A stretch of 64,000 nucleotides of DNA, taken from an uncultured virus (IMG/VR IMGVR_UViG_3300042349_000638). Its lineage: Duplodnaviria; Heunggongvirae; Uroviricota; Caudoviricetes. Location: IMG/VR virus record IMGVR_UViG_3300042349_000638, one strand, 5' to 3'. Every line of letters starts with the position of its first letter. Position 1 is the first letter of the stretch. The translations under genes were made by a program, and so were the position numbers. This document shows positions 4,456-30,046 of the stretch, one piece after another. The notes below the pieces were generated by a model. That model had not been told where the DNA came from. It saw nothing but the letters and a program-made list of their open reading frames with translations, and ran no database searches.

Positions 4456-4502
4456 AAGATAAGTTGTTTACTTCAGTATCATACTCTATTATGTATTACC
4501 TG

Positions 4503-4703
4503 TCAATCAACTCTTTCTGACAGAATAACTTCATTGCCCTCTACATGTATTTGAATTTCTGTATCCTCGTACCAAGAAAGATCATTGATAACTTGCTCAG
4601 GTATAATCAAATAATAATCGCCCGAAATTGGATCGACCTGTAGAGACTCAAAAATATCACCGGAATTTTTTTTCATTTCTGTATTATCATTGACCTTTTT
4701 CAA
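4503..4703 (-). CDS. AbrB/SpoVT-like small DNA-binding protein
   Basis: GDYYLIIPEQVINDLSWYEDTEIQIHVEGNEVILS swapped-hairpin pattern. Confidence 0.6.
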   Translation of the reverse strand: MKKVNDNTEMKKNSGDIFESLQVDPISGDYYLIIPEQVINDLSWYEDTEIQIHVEGNEVILSERVD

Positions 4704-4894
4704 ATTTATATATTCTTCCGGGATTTTTGAATCAGGGAGATATTTAGAGGTCGATCTGGGTCGTTTATAGCTTAGGGTAGTGGTGCGTTTTTATAACACG
4801 GGGGCGCCCCCGATCGGGCGCGGCGGCGGGGCACTGTCGATCACGAACGAACGAACTGCCCCCCACGAACGAACGCAGGGGGCAGGGGATGGGG

Positions 4895-5104
4895 TCACCG
4901 CAGGGCAGGCGACCCGTTGCGGATGTGGCGGTTGGCGTGACCCGCAGCAACAGAAGGGCGCCACGCGGTGCCACCACCACCAACACGGTTAGCAGTCGCT
5001 TCGCCCTTACGGGGACCACGACGGGGCAGACGGGTCAGGCGCATGGCACCCGATGCGATGGCAGCATTCAGTTCGGCGGCGGTCATCACGGTGGGGGTGT
5101 TCAT
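4895..5104 (-). CDS. Small basic hypothetical protein of the GC-rich island
   Basis: ATG at 5104, downstream of a canonical promoter. Confidence 0.6.
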   Translation of the reverse strand: MNTPTVMTAAELNAAIASGAMRLTRLPRRGPRKGEATANRVGGGGTAWRPSVAAGHANRHIRNGSPALR

Positions 5105-5125
5105 CGGGTGGGTTGCGGTTGAGAG

Positions 5126-5155
5126 AATTCTACAGGGTCGGCGGCAGGGGGTCAA
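5126..5155 (-). promoter_or_regulatory. Sigma70-type early promoter
   Basis: TTGACC-17 nt-TAGAAT on minus strand. Confidence 0.7.
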
Positions 5156-5328
5156 CCCCACTGCGCCTGCCGAACGTCGGCGGCGTGTACTTCGGCGAAC
5201 TGGGCAGCGTACACGGTGGCGGGGATGCCCCATTCAGTCGTCAGGCGGTTAAAGGGGGTGTCGTCATTCTTACGGGCAACCCACACGGTCTGGCGATCAT
5301 GCAGGCGGGTGGCGGGAGAAAGAATCAT
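5152..5328 (-). CDS. Small hypothetical protein (58 aa)
   Basis: Manual translation MILSPATRLHDRQ...; preceded by TACAAT and the shared CTCAGTTCA leader. Confidence 0.55.
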   Translation of the reverse strand: MILSPATRLHDRQTVWVARKNDDTPFNRLTTEWGIPATVYAAQFAEVHAADVRQAQWG

Positions 5329-5376
5329 CGGTCGGTGTCGGTTGAACTGAGAGTATTGTAGCAGATCAGCGGGGGG

Positions 5377-5538
5377 TCAGCGCCCCTCAGTGTAGTCTCC
5401 GATGATCACCCCGTTGCAGCGGACCTGGGCGTAGCCGTACTCCTCAGAGAGGTCCAGGCAGAGGTCCCATGCGCGGTCGGCATCGGTGGTAGTGTTCTCC
5501 CAGGGAGCGGAGGGGCAGATCACGTCGTAGCGGGTCAT
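5377..5538 (-). CDS. Small hypothetical protein (53 aa)
   Basis: Manual translation MTRYDVICPSAPWEN...WDLCLDLSEEYGYAQV; own promoter cassette. Confidence 0.6.
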   Translation of the reverse strand: MTRYDVICPSAPWENTTTDADRAWDLCLDLSEEYGYAQVRCNGVIIGDYTEGR

Positions 5539-5605
5539 CAGGTGTCGTTTGAACTGAGATCAGTATAAGGGGTCGGTGGGGGCGTCTGCGCCCCCCTTGT
5601 GCCAA

Positions 5606-5815
5606 TCAGAGAACCGTCAGCGCCTGAACCTCCACCGCGCTGTAGACGGGCTCATCAGGGCAGCCATACTCTGCCTCCGTCATGGCGCGGAGTTCGGATG
5701 CCAGGCGGTCAGCATCGGCAGGGTCAGCGTAGAGGGTGTGCAGCACCAACTCAGAGTCGTAGTAGTCGGTGCCCATCGTGAACACACCGTAGACGGTGGC
5801 GGTGGCGGTGGTCAT
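5606..5815 (-). CDS. Small hypothetical protein
   Basis: ORF track; own promoter cassette; stop lies inside next palindrome. Confidence 0.6.
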   Translation of the reverse strand: MTTATATVYGVFTMGTDYYDSELVLHTLYADPADADRLASELRAMTEAEYGCPDEPVYSAVEVQALTVL

Positions 5816-5905
5816 CGGGTTGCCTTGTGAACTGAAAGTATTGTAGGGGGCAAAGGGGAGGGAGGAACCCTCCGCTGTGCCACCTATCGAAGTGGCACAG
5901 TATGA

Positions 5906-6040
5906 TCAGAAGTCGATAGGGTCTGAAGTAGGTTCGGCGTTGCTGATACTATCATCGGAGGCGATTGTTTCCAGGATCTGGAGAATGCTGTCGCCGTCGT
6001 TGCCAGAACGCAGCAGGGAGATAGCAAGGTCGCGAGTCAT
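5906..6040 (-). CDS. Small hypothetical protein (MTRDLAISLL...)
   Basis: Internal ATG of track ORF 5906-6094. Confidence 0.55.
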   Translation of the reverse strand: MTRDLAISLLRSGNDGDSILQILETIASDDSISNAEPTSDPIDF

Positions 6041-6099
6041 TTGTAATTTGAAAGTGTACGGTTTGCGGCAGTCTTTAGGGCGCTGCCGTTCCAATTGGT

Positions 6100-6360
6100 T
6101 TAGAAATCGAACACGTCGCCGTTAATCTCAGCGCGGTTGATCTTAGGGTCGTTCCACTTCACACCATCAGGAGTCTCTTTAGTGCCGAATTCATAGAATG
6201 CCTCCAGCAAATCTTCATAGCAGGCGATTTCATTCTCCTGAATGAAGTTGTAAATGCTCTCATCATTCTCAATCCAGAGCACAACATTCCAGGTCTCATA
6301 ATTAGTCCAACCGTTATAGGTGCGGTCAGTCAGGTTGGTCTGGTAGGTTGCGGTTGCCAT
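6100..6360 (-). CDS. Conserved phage protein of the YNGWTNYETW family
   Basis: YNGWTNYETWNV.LWI.ND...TPDGV.W motif. Confidence 0.75.
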   Translation of the reverse strand: MATATYQTNLTDRTYNGWTNYETWNVVLWIENDESIYNFIQENEIACYEDLLEAFYEFGTKETPDGVKWNDPKINRAEINGDVFDF

Positions 6361-6398
6361 CGGGTTCGCTTGTGAACTGAGAGTATTGTAGGGTGTGC

Positions 6399-6617
6399 TC
6401 AGGGCATCTGGCGTTGCAGGTATGCCAGTTGCTCAACTGCCCCACGGTCCCAGGAACTGAAATGGGTCACCGCTTCCAGGATACGTTGAGCATCATAGGG
6501 CACCTGATCACAGTCATCGTAGACGCTGAGCAGTTCATCCATACGGTCCGCTGCCAGCTTCTGAATGATGGCGTAGGTCTCCTCACTCATCACAACCGTC
6601 ATCATGGGAGTGCTCAT
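6399..6617 (-). CDS. Small hypothetical protein
   Basis: ORF track; promoter cassette upstream. Confidence 0.55.
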   Translation of the reverse strand: MSTPMMTVVMSEETYAIIQKLAADRMDELLSVYDDCDQVPYDAQRILEAVTHFSSWDRGAVEQLAYLQRQMP

Positions 6618-6650
6618 CGGTGTCGTTTGAACTGAGAGTATTGTAGCGGG

Positions 6651-6815
6651 TCAGTGGGCGATCAGGTCGGCAGCGGTGTCCAGTGCCTGAGCTGTCACAT
6701 TGCGGATGGGGCGTAGCGGTTCCCAGAATCCCCAGAGCAGCAGAGCGGTGACCAGGAGGCGCAGCATCGTGGCGCGGTGAAATTCGGGGGAGCGTGAGCG
6801 GGTTAGGGTTCTCAT
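6651..6815 (-). CDS. Small membrane protein (54 aa)
   Basis: Manual translation MRTLTRSRSPEFHRATMLRLLVTALLLWGFW... Confidence 0.5.
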   Translation of the reverse strand: MRTLTRSRSPEFHRATMLRLLVTALLLWGFWEPLRPIRNVTAQALDTAADLIAH

Positions 6816-6961
6816 CAGGGTGCCAGGTGAGCGGGGGAACCACAGGAGCGATAGAAGTCTACCATACGCATCGCCTCCTCATAGGTGCTGAACCATTGCG
6901 ACCGCCACTCACAAGCATTGTAGGGGGTCTGGTAGCGAACTTCGTAGCGGGTCAGTGCCAT
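6815..6961 (-). CDS. Small hypothetical protein (48 aa)
   Basis: Manual translation MALTRYEVRYQTPYNACEWRSQWFSTYEEAMRMVDFYRSCGSPA. Confidence 0.6.
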   Translation of the reverse strand: MALTRYEVRYQTPYNACEWRSQWFSTYEEAMRMVDFYRSCGSPAHLAP

Positions 6962-7085
6962 GGGGTTGGTTGCTGATGAGATCAGTATAAGGGGTCAGCA
7001 GGGGGCATCAGAGGGGGCAGGGTGACAGTTCAGGAAGTGGCACAGGATGCCTGGTCTGGGGTGCTCTGGGCTCTATGATAGGTTC

Positions 7086-7140
7086 ACAAGGGAGAGAGGG
7101 GCAGGGTCGCCCTGATGACGCAAACGGTCGCCACTGGGGC
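7086..7140 (+). ncRNA. Candidate small RNA, copy 1
   Basis: Plus-strand TATGAT 30 bp after palindrome 7022; sequence similar to 9684-9735; no ORF. Confidence 0.4.
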
Positions 7141-7167
7141 AGCTTTGAAATAGTAGGATAAAAAGTA

Positions 7168-7197
7168 TAAAAAAGGGAGGCAACTTGTGCCCCCCTT
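7168..7197 (-). terminator. Intrinsic terminator
   Basis: A6-GGGAGGCA...TGCCCCCTT hairpin giving a U-tract on minus strand. Confidence 0.6.
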
Positions 7198-7201
7198 AAG
7201 T

Positions 7202-7519
7202 TCAATTCAAACGCATTCCAGAGAAGAAAGGAATCGTGCCGAATTGTGCAGAGTGAAAGAACCATTGAAAGTTCTTCTGAAATACACTCTCATCACCAAT
7301 TCCGTGCTCGCGCAGAATAGCATTCAAACGGGATTTGGTGGTGGTGGATCGTTTCCCACCATCGAACAATTCGATCCAGGTTTCGCCAATTCGGGCGATC
7401 AGATTACCGTGCAGAAAGACATCAGTAACGTTAGAACATGCAACCACTTCAGTGTTATCAAGTTTGAAGTCTTTGCCTGCAGTGATAGCAGCATTCATCA
7501 GGCGTTCGATCTTACGCAT
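7202..7519 (-). CDS. Conserved phage protein of the TTKSRLNA family
   Basis: MRKIE...VFLHGNLIA...TTKSRLNA...VFQKNF.WF. Confidence 0.75.
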   Translation of the reverse strand: MRKIERLMNAAITAGKDFKLDNTEVVACSNVTDVFLHGNLIARIGETWIELFDGGKRSTTTKSRLNAILREHGIGDESVFQKNFQWFFHSAQFGTIPFFSGMRLN

Positions 7520-7592
7520 GGGGGGTCTCCCTCTCAACAAACGTAGTATGGCACGGGCAGGGGGTCAGCACAAGGGGTCTTGTGCCACTTGT

Positions 7593-8498
7593 TCATCTGG
7601 CACACTGAAAGCGCCCAGCGTTGAAATTGTGATAAGAAAAGACCTCACGATTCACCAGTTTAAACATACCAAACTCATTGGTCATCACATAACCTTCGGC
7701 ATCAATTCGGTTGCCGTTGATATAAGCGGCAGGACCATCATTGCGGCAGAGGAACAAACAATCATCCTTGATAGATTTAACCAGTGCCCACAATCCAAGC
7801 AGGTTAGGGTCACAATCAAACTCATTCACATTCTCCACAGTAACCTGCTCACCAGCACGAATGAAAGCGTTAAGTTGCTTCTTAATGTCTGCTGCTTTCT
7901 TATCAGTCACGAACCGAACAGCAGTAGACATCTGACGGGCGAACTTTACCACTTCCTCAACATCAGCAAAGGATTCCTGATTGTGAAGGATGTATGCTTT
8001 AGGTTGAACGAATCGAACGTGAGCAGTAGACTCCAGGCGAATGTTCAGCGGTTCGGCAACAGCATCGCGCAGGTCATTCTCAGCACGGTAGAGTGTATGA
8101 GGAGCAACAATGATGCTCTCAGAAACTACCTCTGGGAACTGATAGGTGATTGTGTTTGGAGTGTATTCGTTACATCCACCAAACCCGATAAAATCACCTT
8201 GGATGATAGAATCGACCCGAGGCAGAGAATCCAGGCAGCAGTGAAGAATTTGTGCAACATTACCCTCATGGTTTGTATCAATGTCCTCGTGAGATTCGTT
8301 GATCTTAATCTTCTTTTTGTTGAACACACTTTTAGTGCCAACGAAGAAGTTTCCAGTGGCAGGATTCGTGCCCCAAACAATAGCAGGCGCACCGTCAATC
8401 TTAACACTCAGGGCGCCAGGATTCACGAACCAATCCAGAACAGAAAGGTCACCCGTGAGAATGGTATCTTCGGGGTGCTCAAGGTGTGTGTTTTTCAT
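7593..8498 (-). CDS. Conserved cyanophage protein with ligase-like nucleotidyltransferase motifs
   Basis: NTHLEHPED, SVKIDGAPA (KxDG), QGDF, EGYV, FKLV. Confidence 0.7.
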   Translation of the reverse strand: MKNTHLEHPEDTILTGDLSVLDWFVNPGALSVKIDGAPAIVWGTNPATGNFFVGTKSVFNKKKIKINESHEDIDTNHEGNVAQILHCCLDSLPRVDSIIQGDFIGFGGCNEYTPNTITYQFPEVVSESIIVAPHTLYRAENDLRDAVAEPLNIRLESTAHVRFVQPKAYILHNQESFADVEEVVKFARQMSTAVRFVTDKKAADIKKQLNAFIRAGEQVTVENVNEFDCDPNLLGLWALVKSIKDDCLFLCRNDGPAAYINGNRIDAEGYVMTNEFGMFKLVNREVFSYHNFNAGRFQCAR

Positions 8499-8549
8499 GA
8501 GACTATTGTAAGGGGTCAGCGGTGCCTCTGGGGGGGTTCAGTGTGCCAC

Positions 8550-8741
8550 TTAGTCTACTGTCACATCCTCCAGCAGTTCGGGATTGTATTCTGTAACCTC
8601 TTTAATCAGTTCGGCATCATCATAGGACTCAAGATTTGAAACCAAAGTATCATAAGCGAACGAAACCAAAGTATCCACATCCATCCCCTCTACGATGAGA
8701 GAGGCATAATCTTCGATGAGTTGTTCGCGGTTGATTGTCAT
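8550..8741 (-). CDS. Small acidic hypothetical protein
   Basis: ORF track; stop inside palindrome 8543. Confidence 0.6.
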   Translation of the reverse strand: MTINREQLIEDYASLIVEGMDVDTLVSFAYDTLVSNLESYDDAELIKEVTEYNPELLEDVTVD

Positions 8742-9347
8742 TTGATGTTAAGATACTTTTTGTTGTTAATCATATGATCGAGAATCTCACCGATAAATTG
8801 ACGGTAAGTTTCATCATAATTCTTAGAACACTCTTCATACGCATCGTAGAGTTTGGTATAAAGAGTGTCCCAATGTTGCCGACTGATTGTGTTCATCAGT
8901 AATCGTAGTTTGCGTTCAGGTACTCATTGACATCAAACTTCTCAGTATCACGAAGTTCGGGAATGTCCATATCAAAAATCTCACCAGGCATATCTTGAAT
9001 CTCAGACCAGAGTTCGTCAAACATGGTGTGCCTCTCAGGAACAAATGTAATGTAGAACGAATCGGGGGGCATTGCAACCCCCCCTTGTGCCAGTTAATCA
9101 GGTGTCACACATCATAGAGTTTGTAATGACGAATCTCGCTTTCATAGTACATACGATCCTCATAATCTTCCTCACGTTGAAAGTTCAATACAAAGTTTGC
9201 TATTTCAACACGATGAGCACAAATATCTTGCAGAACTTCAAAATTACGTTGAAGACAGTTGTTGAAATCGACGATCATCAGTTTCCCTCAGCAACGAATG
9301 TAGTATGGCATGGTATCAGCAATTAATCAAGTGCCCTTGTGCCACTT

Positions 9348-9551
9348 TCACACCTGGCACATATCAACCAAGCGGTTACGAATATCAAACAATTCCATCT
9401 CATCCATATCAGCAGATTCTAAATCAACAGGTGCAAACTCTCCCAGGTTTACACTACCATCAGCGTAGATTGGGGCATAATACAATTCATCACCATCTTC
9501 CTGAGAAAGTGTAAAGATGCAACCATAATGCGGCAGAGTGAGAAACACCAT
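9348..9551 (-). CDS. Small hypothetical protein (MVFLTLPHYG...ELYYAPIYADG)
   Basis: ORF track; promoter cassette upstream. Confidence 0.6.
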   Translation of the reverse strand: MVFLTLPHYGCIFTLSQEDGDELYYAPIYADGSVNLGEFAPVDLESADMDEMELFDIRNRLVDMCQV

Positions 9552-9683
9552 CGGGGTCAATTGCGACGACGAAGGTAACATAACCCATCACGTGGCATGT
9601 TGCAACCACTCTTGTGCCACTAGACAAACTGGCACAAGACCCCTTGATCAGGAACCGATTTGCTGATATCTTATAAGAAATTC

Positions 9684-9740
9684 AATGAGGGGAGAGGTAT
9701 CCCTGCTGACGAAAATGCATCGCCACTCCTCCTACCATAA
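9684..9740 (+). ncRNA. Candidate small RNA, copy 2
   Basis: Plus-strand TTGATC-17-TATCTT promoter after palindrome 9614; similar to 7086-7140. Confidence 0.4.
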
Positions 9741-9994
9741 AATATTCATTCTCAATAAGAAACCCTTATTGAGAATGAGGGTCTTGTGCCAAGCTTATAA
9801 CTGGCACATTACTCGAACGGATCGAACTCTTTTACCTTACAATGGAGATCTTCCCCAGGTTCGAGTTGCAATAACTCACGCCATTTAATATCATCTAGAT
9901 CTAGATCATCATAACACATGATGTCTAGTGTAACCTGTATGATGCGCTTTTGTGCTAGCATAGGTGTCTAGATGTGTATGTGTACTAGATTATA

Positions 9995-10291: not shown

Positions 10292-10337
10292 CTTATAAAA
10301 CTGTGTGGGTCGGGGGAAATTTTCGCCGCCGTGGGGC

Positions 10338-10366
10338 TTGACAAACTGCGCGTCTTATGATATACA
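10338..10366 (+). promoter_or_regulatory. Sigma70-type promoter on plus strand, opposite to gene direction
   Basis: TTGACA-17 nt-TATACA with extended -10 TG. Confidence 0.6.
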
Positions 10367-10385
10367 GGTAAAGGTCACAAGACCC

Positions 10386-10494
10386 GAAGGGATTTATAAG
10401 CACTTAGAAGGGATTTATAAGCACTTAGAAGGGATTTATAAGCACTTAGAAGGGATTTATAAGCACTTAGAAGGGATTTATAAGCACTTAGAAG
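10386..10494. repeat. Perfect tandem repeat, 5 x 21 bp GAAGGGATTTATAAGCACTTA
   Basis: Read directly; units start at 10386, 10407, 10428, 10449, 10470. Confidence 0.97.
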
Positions 10495-10621
10495 ACTCTA
10501 TTCTCAACAATAATACTCAATTGATTCTCAATAACATAACACTTATTGAGAATCAAATAAAACAGCAATATATGTTTTTTAATACCTTTTTAATTAAATT
10601 TAACCTTTTTTTATTGATTTT

Positions 10622-10810
10622 TTAACCTTTCATACCCTTTTTCTCTTGTGCTGCTGTCTGTGCTAAATGCATTGTAGTATGAAGACGTTGAAGATTAGCA
10701 TAACGATTATGTTGCCTTGTTGCTAAAGCATTTGACTTAATCTTTGCAGCATCAACTTTTGATTGTTGTGGTGTAGGAATCTGCTCCATAAACTGAAAGA
10801 ACGTCTTCAT
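10622..10810 (-). CDS. Small late-type protein (MKTFFQFMEQ...)
   Basis: MKTF.QF.E N-terminus typical of T4-like virion/internal proteins. Confidence 0.55.
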   Translation of the reverse strand: MKTFFQFMEQIPTPQQSKVDAAKIKSNALATRQHNRYANLQRLHTTMHLAQTAAQEKKGMKG

Positions 10811-27500: not shown

Positions 27501-30046
27501 CAACTCACTTCATTCAGTGTTTCAAGTAAAGTCATCAGGTGTCTGTGTGTATGAGAGTATTATAGGGCAAAACACACCCCATCACAAGGAGGAGTGTGCC
27601 AGTTTAGGGAGTGTCCTGATAATACATCTCCTGTACATAACGGACATAATCACTTTGAAGATAGTTAAAGAACTCTCCGTCTTCACTTCTCATAGTATAG
27701 CACCATTCATCAAAGATTTCTCCAATCCACCACCAACCAACTTCAATTTTCTCAAAGAAGTCCATAGGACGATCGTAGAGTTTCATACTACCTCATCATT
27801 TACTTTACACATCGTTGCTTCAAAGATAATGTCCTTTTCCAGTTCGTATGGTGATGCTACTTTGAGATAGGTTTGATACTGATACTCGTTGAGGTCTTTG
27901 GATGGAATACAACCATTACAAGAGATTGTTTCTTGAATTGCTTTTTCAATTGGTTCTTCATAAACCCATTTGAAGATAAACATCAGTCATTCTCCAAATC
28001 TCCATCAAAGTTGTTTAGATACTGCCAGAACCAAATTCTATTTACTCTCTCTTCACTATTATCACTATTAAGGTGTGGAAACATTAGATTTTGCCAAGCA
28101 CAAAAAGTCCATTCCCACATTCTTTGTCTCAACCAGAATTGTTGAAGTTTATATGGGAGTTTCATTCATCCACCTCAATCTCAATCATTTCATAAGTAGT
28201 ATAAAATTTTTGTCTTTCTTCCTGAAGTTTCACAATCAATACCTCATTTGCTTTGTCTTTGGAAGTGGAAGCATACTCAATATGATAACCCAAATCAACA
28301 TTATCAACCACACAATAGATTTTCATTCTTGCCACCCCTCAAAGTATTCTGTGAAAAAGTTAAAACTCAAATCATATTTACCAATCTGAAAATCTACTCC
28401 AAATAAAGAACTGGTAAAAAATGAGAGTAGAATGTGTAATCCTTTATATACACTAATAGATAGATCTTGATAATGAACCCAGAGTAATGAACGATTGTTG
28501 ATGATACCAAACTGCCAAGTGTGGTCGGCAATACCATCGTCCCAAACTTTCTTATCGTATTGGAAGAGTTTCATTCTTCACCTTCCCAGTCAATCTCAAC
28601 GGTTTCAAATTGTTCTACATTAGTATAAGGCATAGGATTTGCTGGTCCTCCCATCTCATAATGGATTTTATCAAACAATTCTTGAAGCACTAAACTCTCA
28701 AATCCTTCTTGGTCTGGATAATCCTCCCAGTCCTCAAACATTTCAGTTGTGGGAGCAACTGTGAGAGTTCGGGTGTAAGTTACTGTGACAGCTTTGAGTG
28801 GGATTTTAGTCATTTCAGTTCATCAAGTTTCTCATTCACAAAACCAGTCATATCAATTGTGCGAGGATCTACACCTTCATCAAGGCAATCAAGGTGAAAC
28901 TCCATAACAGCACCCAGAATCAAACATGCTTTGCGTTTATCATCCAGTGGTTGAGCAATGTAATTGACAATGTGCTCGTAGAGTTGGTCGTAGGTCATCG
29001 GTTTGATGTGTATGAAGTCATTATAAGGCAAAAAGGGCACCTGTTGAGATGCCCTGTGCCAGTTCTTCAGGTGTCCTTGTATTTCTCTTCTACTTCTTTC
29101 ACACGCTCTATGAAACTATCATCACCATGATCACCACTATACAGATAATCAATGTGACGCATAATCTCTGACATCTTACGCATTTTGGGCAGTTGTTCTT
29201 TCAGATACTCAATTACATCAGGATCATGGTTAGGATACCATTTCTCACCATAGTATCCACTATCATCTTTTACTTTACCGTTGTTGAGGATTTCTTCTTC
29301 CAACTCATCAGCAAACTGTGATACCTTGTAGTAATCGTAACCACAATCTCCAAAGTGGCCTCCGCTCATGGTTGCTCCTCCGTCGTCACAGGCGGTGCAG
29401 GGGGTGCCACAGGTGGCAGTGTGGTAGTTTGAGGTTCTGGGGTCAGCACAGACGCTTCTGGGGCGGTCTCAGGCAGCGTCACGGGTGCTGGTTTGGAAAG
29501 GTCTTCGAGTTTCTGATCCAGTTGGATCAGTTTCTGATCTAATTCAGTTGATGATTGTTGTGAGCTTGCTTCAGTAAGTTTCCATCCAGCAGCAGCAGCA
29601 GCAAAAATACTCGCAAGGGCAGCAACAGTTGAAATGGTCTTTGTGAAACTCATTCTTCCTCCAATTCTTCTTCTACAGGGAACATAGCATCATACTCTTC
29701 GTCAGTTAGAGTAAGATACTGGACATTAGCATCTCGGTGTTCTTCGGCATAAACCAATCGGTAATGATCAAAGTCATCAAGATCGGTGCTGCCATATTCT
29801 ACAACACCATCAACCAAACACAAGTAGTTCATTTTAAGAAACTGTCTCAGGATTCCAATAATAGTAATATTCTTCTTCAGTCATAGCAAATACTTTTGCC
29901 ATTTCTTCAAGATCTTCATCAGAGATGTCGAAGATTTCACCAGGCATGTCTTGGATCTCTTCAAGCATTTGAGGCGTTCCCTTGACTACCTTTATAGTAT
30001 AGAGCAAAACACACCCTCCACAATAGAAGGTGTGCCAGTTTTTCAA
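24549..30046 (-). other. Run of small tightly coupled hypothetical ORFs (accessory region)
   Basis: About 20 minus-strand track ORFs with overlapping stop/start codons; includes Pro-rich membrane protein 29366-29653. Confidence 0.65.

Follow-up and report, generated by a model that had tools for sequence, protein, structure and literature searches.

A conserved pair of plus-strand elements

The 64,000-nucleotide DNA stretch from the uncultured virus IMGVR_UViG_3300042349_000638, referred to here as the window, carries two copies of a small element, copy A and copy B, on the plus strand, each next to a palindrome that is shared with a leftward promoter. Sequence analysis indicates that the pair is real, conserved, and uncatalogued, representing two small plus-strand genes with predicted expression and action. 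Their membership in a family, the conservation of their promoters, a covarying hairpin, the functional strand, and their paralogy are established in this work. We consider it somewhat probable that both copies encode small RNAs which act as RNA, and that the A lineage has added a reading frame that is possibly translated.

The initial annotation of the window had noted that two palindromes are each followed by a plus-strand −10 hexamer at similar spacing and that the sequences further downstream resemble each other. Both observations hold. The palindromes and −10 boxes are present at both copies, with a spacing of 30 nucleotides (nt) for copy A and 31 nt between the palindrome at 9614-9635 and TATCTT for copy B, and the stretches downstream of the two palindromes align with 33 of 42 columns identical and 3 gaps. 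When the window was searched, all filters off, with a covariance model (R1) made from homologues of the element, only two matches stood out, copy A with 76.1 bits (E = 1.7e-16) and copy B with 65.4 bits (E = 7e-14). The third-best match in the 64-kb window scored 11.1 bits, placing the resemblance of the two copies far beyond chance. Because the minus-strand −10-like hexamers mirror the plus-strand boxes, each palindrome lies midway between two outward promoters (Table 1).

The element belongs to a virus-borne family

Homologues were collected by scanning viral metagenome contigs with sequence patterns. A 19-base pattern of the shared core found 49 stretches, two further patterns found 108 and 81, and a fourth scan with a pattern of the invariant positions found 115. 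Segments of 205 nt were extracted, and the first three scans gave 105 distinct segments. Testing their 5' halves for a motif identified 80 as members, of which 68 belong to type A and 12 to type B. Three members missed by this test (L009, L175, and L233) were restored to the set, and the remaining 22 segments were judged by eye to be chance matches of the short third pattern. Together with nine new A variants from the fourth scan, the final set holds 80 A variants and 12 B variants, about 92 distinct sequences, and family members score 59-84 bits with the covariance model. The initial annotation had proposed a homologue collection and an Rfam search; the former thus yielded a family of viral-contig variants and the latter no known RNA family. 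There was no match of Rfam 15 at the gathering score in the whole window, none at the two elements (6900-9900) at E up to 10, and none at the elements of nine homologous loci at E up to 1.

The invariant-position pattern was also run against 596 Gb of bacterial and archaeal genomes, where it occurred at four places only, none of them cyanobacterial and all with 11-24 bits. The element is therefore at chance level in bacterial genomes, and a host origin was rejected in view of these scores, compared with 59-84 bits for family members. Among cultured phages, S-SRM01 carries two copies, DSL-LC03 carries one (E = 7e-12), and P-SSM2 carries one that scores weakly with R1 (E = 0.09) and shares the palindrome, the 31-nt spacing, TATAAT, and the hairpin; the element is unannotated in all three genomes. 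It is also undescribed in the literature searched, which did not extend to the Syn9 transcriptome (Doron et al. 2016), and the available part of the P-HM2 RNA-seq paper (PMC5082946) has nothing on it. In P-SSM2 (L359, 890-1210), the 400-nt gap between PSSM2_099 and PSSM2_098 holds three palindromes, each located approximately 31 nt before a TATAAT on the strand opposite the genes, and the first alone leads into the element.

The two types are old paralogues. Compared with A, the core of B has one inserted base and the loop of its hairpin is closed by an A-U pair; B also has a promoter sequence of its own, and the hairpin downstream of it is AT-rich. Among the contigs with two copies, 10 of 11 carry one A and one B on the same strand with A first, a few kb apart by contig coordinates, and S-SRM01 likewise has an A-like copy first, separated by 1.5 kb from a B-like one. 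This recurrent pairing and order, found also in S-SRM01, indicates that the duplication is old and that both copies have been retained.

Each copy has its own promoter and is independent of its neighbours

The prediction of a duplicated plus-strand unit with its own promoter is borne out by the two copies and by the −10 box, which is conserved across the 80 A variants (T71 A71 t50 A57 a50 T74) at a distance of 7 nt ahead of the putative start ACAA (A77 C75 A79 A78). The 13 columns ahead of the hexamer vary freely in the same variants, and almost all homologues keep the right half of the palindrome at one constant distance upstream of the −10 box. The B-type homologues keep both a −35 box (TTGATC, TTGATT, or TTGCAA) and the −10 box TATCTT.

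In tblastn searches, the hits of neighbouring genes were on the strand opposite the element in 160 of 160 cases, across 45 of 49 loci, and the gene adjoining the element differs between loci. The strand of these hits and the change of adjacent gene together indicate that the element is independent of its neighbours. The exception to the opposite-strand rule is L023, where one of three copies is co-oriented with the flanking open reading frames (ORFs). This G+C-rich viral contig has its three copies within 700 bp (1487-2157), two of them in tandem, and the third shows a GCGC/GCGC stem and a 10-codon frame in another register.

A short hairpin covaries on the plus strand

RNAalifold applied to 83 sequences returned a single conserved helix, the 5-bp hairpin P1. 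In 75 distinct sequences, all 375 of 375 pair cells are paired and 20 of them are changed on both sides, a covariation score that was reached by 0 of 500 shuffles. Sliding one partner by 1-3 columns lowers the pairing to 45-71%. The closing pair is G.U in 66 sequences and G-C in nine; the middle pair is G-C in 66, U-A in eight, and A-U in one; the loop-closing pair is C-G in 60, A-U in nine, U.G in four, G.U in one, and U-A in one; and the two remaining pairs are G-C in 75 of 75. A compensatory change is visible within the window itself, where the loop-closing pair is C-G in copy A and A-U in copy B. When the distant copies are included, pairing holds in 396 of 397 cells and three of the five pairs show changes on both sides, in an alignment that was fitted to the model and is hence biased towards P1. 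In copy 1 of S-SRM01 the whole stem is replaced (GGCAGC/GCUGCC) around the same AGGGUC loop, and the stem in P-SSM2 is AGGAG/CUCCU. Homologues with compensatory changes, the absence of which would have counted against the initial annotation, are therefore present.

P1 also identifies the strand. When the hairpin is read on the minus strand, 71 of 375 cells become A.C or C.A. The G.U pairs of P1 thus fit the plus strand only, which, together with the promoter, assigns plus as the functional strand.

The annotation of the RNA as structured is borne out for P1 but goes no further, for RNAalifold gave no second conserved helix. A second helix suggested by single-sequence folds (UGGCG/CGUCA) shows no covariation and was rejected. 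Base pairing between the G-rich 5' part and the C-rich tail, which is favoured over P1 in every C-tailed A variant (40 of 40) and every B variant (12 of 12), was rejected as a conserved helix because half of the A variants (40 of 80), including copy A of the window, have a G-rich tail that cannot form it; by eye, no compensation for this pairing was seen in variants with a GUGC stem. Competition between this pairing and P1 might act as a switch, which we raise as a possibility suggested by the folds and not as a finding.

Known RNA classes were considered as well. Hammerhead ribozymes have an invariant CUGANGA and GAAA core set in three helices. Copy A contains CUGAUGA...GAAA, but the base after CUG is A in 46, C in seven, and T in 11 of 64 sequences, there is one conserved helix instead of three, and Rfam gives no match, so a hammerhead was rejected. 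A transfer RNA or tmRNA was rejected because ARAGORN finds 0 genes in the window.

A 12-codon reading frame is superimposed on the A type

In copy A, a 12-codon frame (MTQTVATGAALK) begins directly after P1, as it does in the other A variants. The start codon among 80 A variants is ATG in 62, TTG in 11, and CTG in seven. The frame is 12 codons long in 51 variants, 11 in four, 10 in one, 15 in one, 26 in two, and 32 in ten; it has no stop within the segment in ten, and in L281 it is cut at codon 3 with two codons read. When the tails are sorted into 20 clusters, the modal length is 12 codons in 12 clusters and 11 in two. Codon 7 (ACT/ACC/ACG) and codon 10 (GCT/GCC/GCA/GCG) vary nearly exclusively at the third position. 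The initial annotation had seen no convincing ORF at either site. This is correct for copy B, where a 67-amino-acid (aa) ORF (9685-9888) varies in length among homologues and has no protein family match, but not for copy A with its recurrent frame at 7115-7153. For the same reason, the label non-coding is uncertain for copy A, while the B type lacks the A-type frame.

None of the 12 B variants carries the frame, and it is likewise missing in the two copies of S-SRM01, in P-SSM2, and in copy 2 of L023. These frame-less copies, as well as L281, all retain P1 and the UCGNCAC...CCUGC...AAAUA stretch, and the AAAUAA that supplies the stop of the frame is conserved even in copies without the frame. 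Given that the frame is missing in the B type, S-SRM01, and P-SSM2 while P1 and the core persist, the shared function is probably exerted at the RNA level.

An alternative is that copy A is primarily a tiny protein gene, a micro-mRNA for the 12-residue peptide MTQTVATGAALK, with copy B as a frameshifted, non-coding, or regulatory relative. P1 would then bring an upstream GGAG near the AUG, or display its GGGU/GAGGU loop 7 nt before the AUG. We regard this alternative as possible but clearly the less probable one. In its favour, the frame starts at one position in the 80 A variants and has exactly 12 codons in 51 and 11 in four, whereas the one other frame that is open shows its most frequent length in no more than 14 of 68; codon 13 is the stop in 12 of the 20 divergent tail clusters; third-position changes dominate codons 7 and 10; three of the seven CTG-start variants have gained an ATG at codon 4; DSL-LC03 retains an 11-codon version in the same frame; and where codons differ, their BLOSUM scores average 0.48 in this frame compared with 0.00 and -0.03 in the other two. 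However, codons 1-6 vary at the first and second positions but rarely at the third, with a third-position entropy of 0 in codons 1, 2, 3, and 5, which is the opposite of coding drift, and the share of synonymous single-base changes (0.338) is below that in frame 1 (0.399). The nucleotides are kept where the frame is missing or cut (B, S-SRM01, P-SSM2, L023 copy 2, and L281), the 10-codon frame of L023 copy 3 is in a different register, and 16 of 80 variants, all from one tail cluster, read through the terminator with 26 or 32 codons or no stop. We know of no function for a 12-residue cytoplasmic phage peptide. We therefore tentatively rank an element that acts as RNA, with a frame possibly translated in this lineage, above a tiny protein gene.

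Proposed model and alternative explanations

In the model that we propose, each copy would be an independent small gene on the strand opposite its neighbours, driven by a host-type (sigma-70-like) promoter that lies approximately 31 nt from a palindrome used by the neighbouring leftward promoter as well. Transcription itself, both RNA ends, the timing, the mode of action, and any translation are predictions in this model. The RNA would start at ACAA, at approximately 7086 for copy A and 9679 for copy B, and comprise three parts, namely the short 5' hairpin P1 with its G-rich, Shine-Dalgarno-like loop, a conserved stretch of approximately 35 nt outside any conserved helix, and an A-rich tail leading into the terminator hairpin of the converging gene. 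If it ends at that hairpin, its estimated length is 100-120 nt; the plus-strand RNA may end there or run on antisense to the converging gene. The shared RNA product would most likely pair or bind through the unpaired conserved stretch and the C-rich tail. In the A lineage of the relatives of this phage, the superimposed 12-codon frame would, if translated, make a dual-function RNA. The very early expression proposed in the initial annotation is predicted from a sole feature, the promoter-plus-palindrome layout that is common to the neighbouring small genes.

Several observations weigh against this model. The 12-codon frame looks selected in its start position, its length, and the third-position variation of codons 7 and 10. 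The conserved structure is limited to one 5-bp helix, which is little for a structured RNA, and in single-sequence folds P1 is less stable, by approximately 5.5 kcal/mol, than base pairing between the G-rich 5' part and the C-rich tail. The A-type −35 box is weak, and a generic promoter scan of the window lists neither plus-strand promoter. The downstream hairpins at 7173-7197 and 9746-9778, the latter of which is conserved in B-type homologues, were scored as terminators for the minus strand only, and the plus-strand U tract is poor, with 51 of 67 measurable A variants having at most 3 U in the 10 nt past the stem, a figure that undercounts U because the fold absorbs some of them; the 3' end of the plus-strand RNA is consequently undefined. 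The family is missing in four of the seven cultured Kyanoviridae genomes tested, as S-CRM01, S-CREM1, SynMITS9220M01, and S-RSM4 gave no match at E up to 1. Finally, pairing of the cores with the translation-start regions of 204 minus-strand ORFs of the window was no better than for shuffled cores (best duplexes of -35.4 for A and -30.8 for B, compared with shuffled-core means of -35.2 and -28.7). Since the best duplexes fall inside the range of the shuffled cores, targets within the window were rejected.

A more specific version, which we offer as a doubtful speculation, is that the A/B pair is a phage RNA circuit timing early-gene translation, in the manner of a translational repressor but made of RNA. 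An anti-Shine-Dalgarno seed would be provided by the C-rich tail (CUCCUCCU / CCCCCUGCC) and act on the strong GAGGGA-type ribosome sites of neighbouring early mRNAs, and the seed would be masked or unmasked as P1 competes with base pairing between the tail and the G-rich 5' part. In copy A, ribosomes translating the 12-codon frame over the tail could do the same.

It is unlikely that the element is a by-product of a two-way promoter cassette, with an inert RNA and the block kept as a recombination joint, comparable to the promoter-early stem-loop (PeSL) cassettes of T4-type phages. The element does sit between a terminator and a promoter, where neighbouring genes vary from phage to phage, as expected for such a joint. 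However, the compensatory changes and G.U pairs in P1 indicate selection on RNA, the plus-strand −10 box and start are conserved when the flanks are not, and the other palindromes, in 7582-9360, are without the insert.

Less likely still is a promoter for a replication-origin-type primer, whose G-rich transcript (GGAGGGGCAGGG), with A/T-rich DNA following for approximately 30 nt, would persist in an RNA-DNA hybrid and prime DNA synthesis. The T4 origins oriF and oriG are the analogy for such hybrid-primed DNA synthesis. The order of promoter, G cluster, and A-rich tract over approximately 25-30 nt fits this explanation, as do the usual two copies per genome and an RNA without a clear plus-strand terminator. 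It does not account for a hairpin that covaries as RNA, nor for the conserved 35-nt core, which a mere unwinding element would not need, and the A-rich tract is explained without an origin because it is the same as the U tract of the converging gene's terminator.

A functional minus strand, with the element as an untranslated one (3' or 5') or as a gene for a small protein co-directional with the neighbours, is very improbable: the hairpin UGGCG...CGUCA pairs fully only there in both window copies and one frame runs through the core without a stop in 73 of 80 A variants and in all 12 B variants, but the bases of that hairpin never covary (the variable position is C in 41, T in 12, G in six, and A in five of 64), P1 would lose 71 of 375 pairs, a minus-strand terminator lies upstream of the element, and coding on this strand was rejected since the ORFs differ in start, frame, and length, are lacking in 18 of 80 A variants, and, over copy A in the window, match no Pfam or PHROG family.

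Genomic context of the two copies

Table 1. Features at and around the two copies of the element in the window (positions are those of the window).
Feature	Position	Strand	Remarks
−10-like hexamer TATACT	6984-6989	-	leftward promoter of the 48-aa gene 6815-6961; 32 nt from palindrome
Palindrome, copy A	7022-7043		common to two back-to-back promoters
−10 box TATGAT, copy A	7074-7079	+	30 nt past palindrome
Putative transcription start ACAA, copy A	7086-7089	+	7 nt past −10 box; predicted
Conserved core, copy A (A-type)	7087-7147	+	R1 match
Hairpin P1, copy A: GGGGC, loop AGGGUC, GCCCU	7098-7113	+	covariation
12-codon frame MTQTVATGAALK then stop, copy A	7115-7153	+	recurs in A-type variants
Intrinsic terminator of converging gene 7202-7519	7173-7197	-	possible hairpin 3' end of plus-strand RNA
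−10-like hexamer beside copy B palindrome	9577-9582	-	31 nt from palindrome
Palindrome, copy B	9614-9635		common to two back-to-back promoters
Promoter, copy B: TTGATC (9643-9648), 18 nt, TATCTT (9667-9672)	9643-9672	+	assigned from sequence
Conserved core, copy B (B-type; with one base more than A, lacking the A-type frame)	9678-9739	+	
Hairpin P1, copy B: GGGGA, loop GAGGUA, UCCCU	9689-9704	+	
AT-rich 15-pair hairpin	9746-9778	-	terminator-like for converging gene 9809-9961; possible 3' end of RNA B
Further palindrome just past copy B	9786-9807		minus-strand GAGAAT at 32 nt, within hairpin 9746-9778

The sequence identifies the window as part of a T4-like cyanophage genome. Its ORF list begins with baseplate-type genes, the gene adjoining copy A (7202-7519) matches the Pfam family Kyano_Gp96 (E = 1.3e-37), and the cultured phages with DNA matches to the window are exclusively Synechococcus myoviruses. 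Both copies lie in a G+C-rich island at approximately 4.5-9.8 kb, with a G+C content of 0.42-0.61 per kb compared with 0.374 for the whole window, which is populated by small minus-strand genes. This island (4500-9800) looks acquired or separately evolving, and the rest of the phage genome is A+T-rich.

The palindrome GTGCCAC-N8-GTGGCAC occurs in eight copies within 5877-9807, one ahead of each small gene of the island. A minus-strand −10-like hexamer is present at 31-32 nt from the palindromes at 7022, 7582, 8543, 9087, 9339, and 9614. This layout suggests that the repeated palindrome is a candidate docking site for a regulator of these promoters. Looser matches to the palindrome exist elsewhere in the window, for example at 30032 and 38219. 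The minus-strand GAGAAT 32 nt from the palindrome at 9786-9807 would, if active, yield an RNA antisense to copy B.

The gene for a 301-aa DUF6267 / PHROG 455 protein (7593-8498, minus strand) is the nearest recognized neighbour of the element in 13 of 45 loci, eight times upstream and five times downstream. Its ATG is 6 nt past a TACAAT box (8498-8515), and this short distance is the reason why its mRNA may be leaderless. Near residue 33 the protein has a VKIDG stretch, which we take to recall the KxDG motif of nucleotidyl-transferase ligases. Beyond the island, the plus-strand ORF at 10305-10625 repeats the seven-residue unit EGIYKHL five to six times, which points to a 21-bp DNA tandem repeat at approximately 10.35-10.47 kb.

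Discussion

The proposed RNA resembles several known systems without coinciding with any of them. Dual-function small RNAs that encode a short peptide include SgrS/SgrT, RNAIII/delta-haemolysin, and SR1/SR1P. The element shares with them its own promoter, a short conserved frame, and constraint at the RNA level, but its frame has only 12 codons, overlaps the most conserved stretch, and is absent in the B type and in distant A relatives. In T4 genes 38 and 25, hairpins lie between the Shine-Dalgarno sequence and the start codon. P1 likewise lies between an upstream GGAG and the AUG, and its folding would bring both close, so that covariation in a translation-start region would be explicable. 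In contrast to those hairpins, P1 persists, with compensatory changes, even where a start codon is lacking (B-type, S-SRM01, and P-SSM2).

Cyanobacterial small RNAs of the Yfr1 type carry a conserved unpaired motif between two hairpins. The element is similar in size, its own promoter, and the succession of a 5' hairpin, an unpaired conserved stretch, and a further hairpin, and many variants have a C/U-rich stretch, such as CUCCUCCU of copy B. It differs in being phage-borne and without an Rfam match, and 40 of the 80 A variants have a G-rich tail.

Among the RNAs of cyanophages, the available part of a 2025 review lists the antisense RNA CfrI of S-PM2 and the abiF, wcaG, manA, and glnA motifs of S-CREM1 (PMC12197685). 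CfrI is comparable in being an RNA of a T4-like cyanophage that is read against neighbouring genes. As described in that part, it is approximately 225 nt long and antisense to the psbA / endonuclease region (PMC12197685), whereas our element overlaps no coding sequence up to its conserved core. The four motifs of S-CREM1 are, by the same account, cis-regulatory and in Rfam; the element matches none of them, and S-CREM1 is without the element.

The closest parallel in layout is the PeSL cassettes of the T4-type phages RB49 and phi1, in which, according to the available part of the report, strong host-type early promoters and stem-loop terminators occur in a hyperplastic region of small genes; T4-type phages shuffle genes there, and related phages differ in gene content (Arbiol et al. 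2010, PMC2839356). The window resembles this arrangement, as far as that part describes it, in its promoter/stem-loop layout at 5.9-9.8 kb and in the change of the element's neighbours between phages. It has promoters of the sigma-70-like kind (a conserved −10 box in the A type and TTGATC-18-TATCTT in the B type) as well as the adjacent terminating stem-loops, which are the minus-strand hairpins at 7197-7173 and 9778-9746. The part of that report available to us mentions neither a palindrome approximately 31 nt upstream of the −10 box nor an opposite-strand block that is conserved and transcribed (PMC2839356). In the window, by contrast, the element adds approximately 130 bp with an outward promoter, a covarying hairpin, and a core between the terminator and the promoter.

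New in this work are the paralogy and order of A and B, the assignment of the strand from G.U pairs, the 12-codon frame with its exceptions, the chance-level count in bacteria, and the weak plus-strand terminator. To our knowledge, a translated 12-codon frame would rank with the shortest phage genes that show conservation. In lakes and oceans, T4-like cyanophages belong to the most abundant viruses, and the control of the first minutes of their infection is poorly known. The available part of one study describes them as being without the middle-promoter system of T4 (PMC5780444). Because it is wired to the palindrome of the early genes, the element family is a good candidate for a regulator of the early phase, and its presence in the cultured phages S-SRM01, DSL-LC03, and P-SSM2 makes it testable at the bench.

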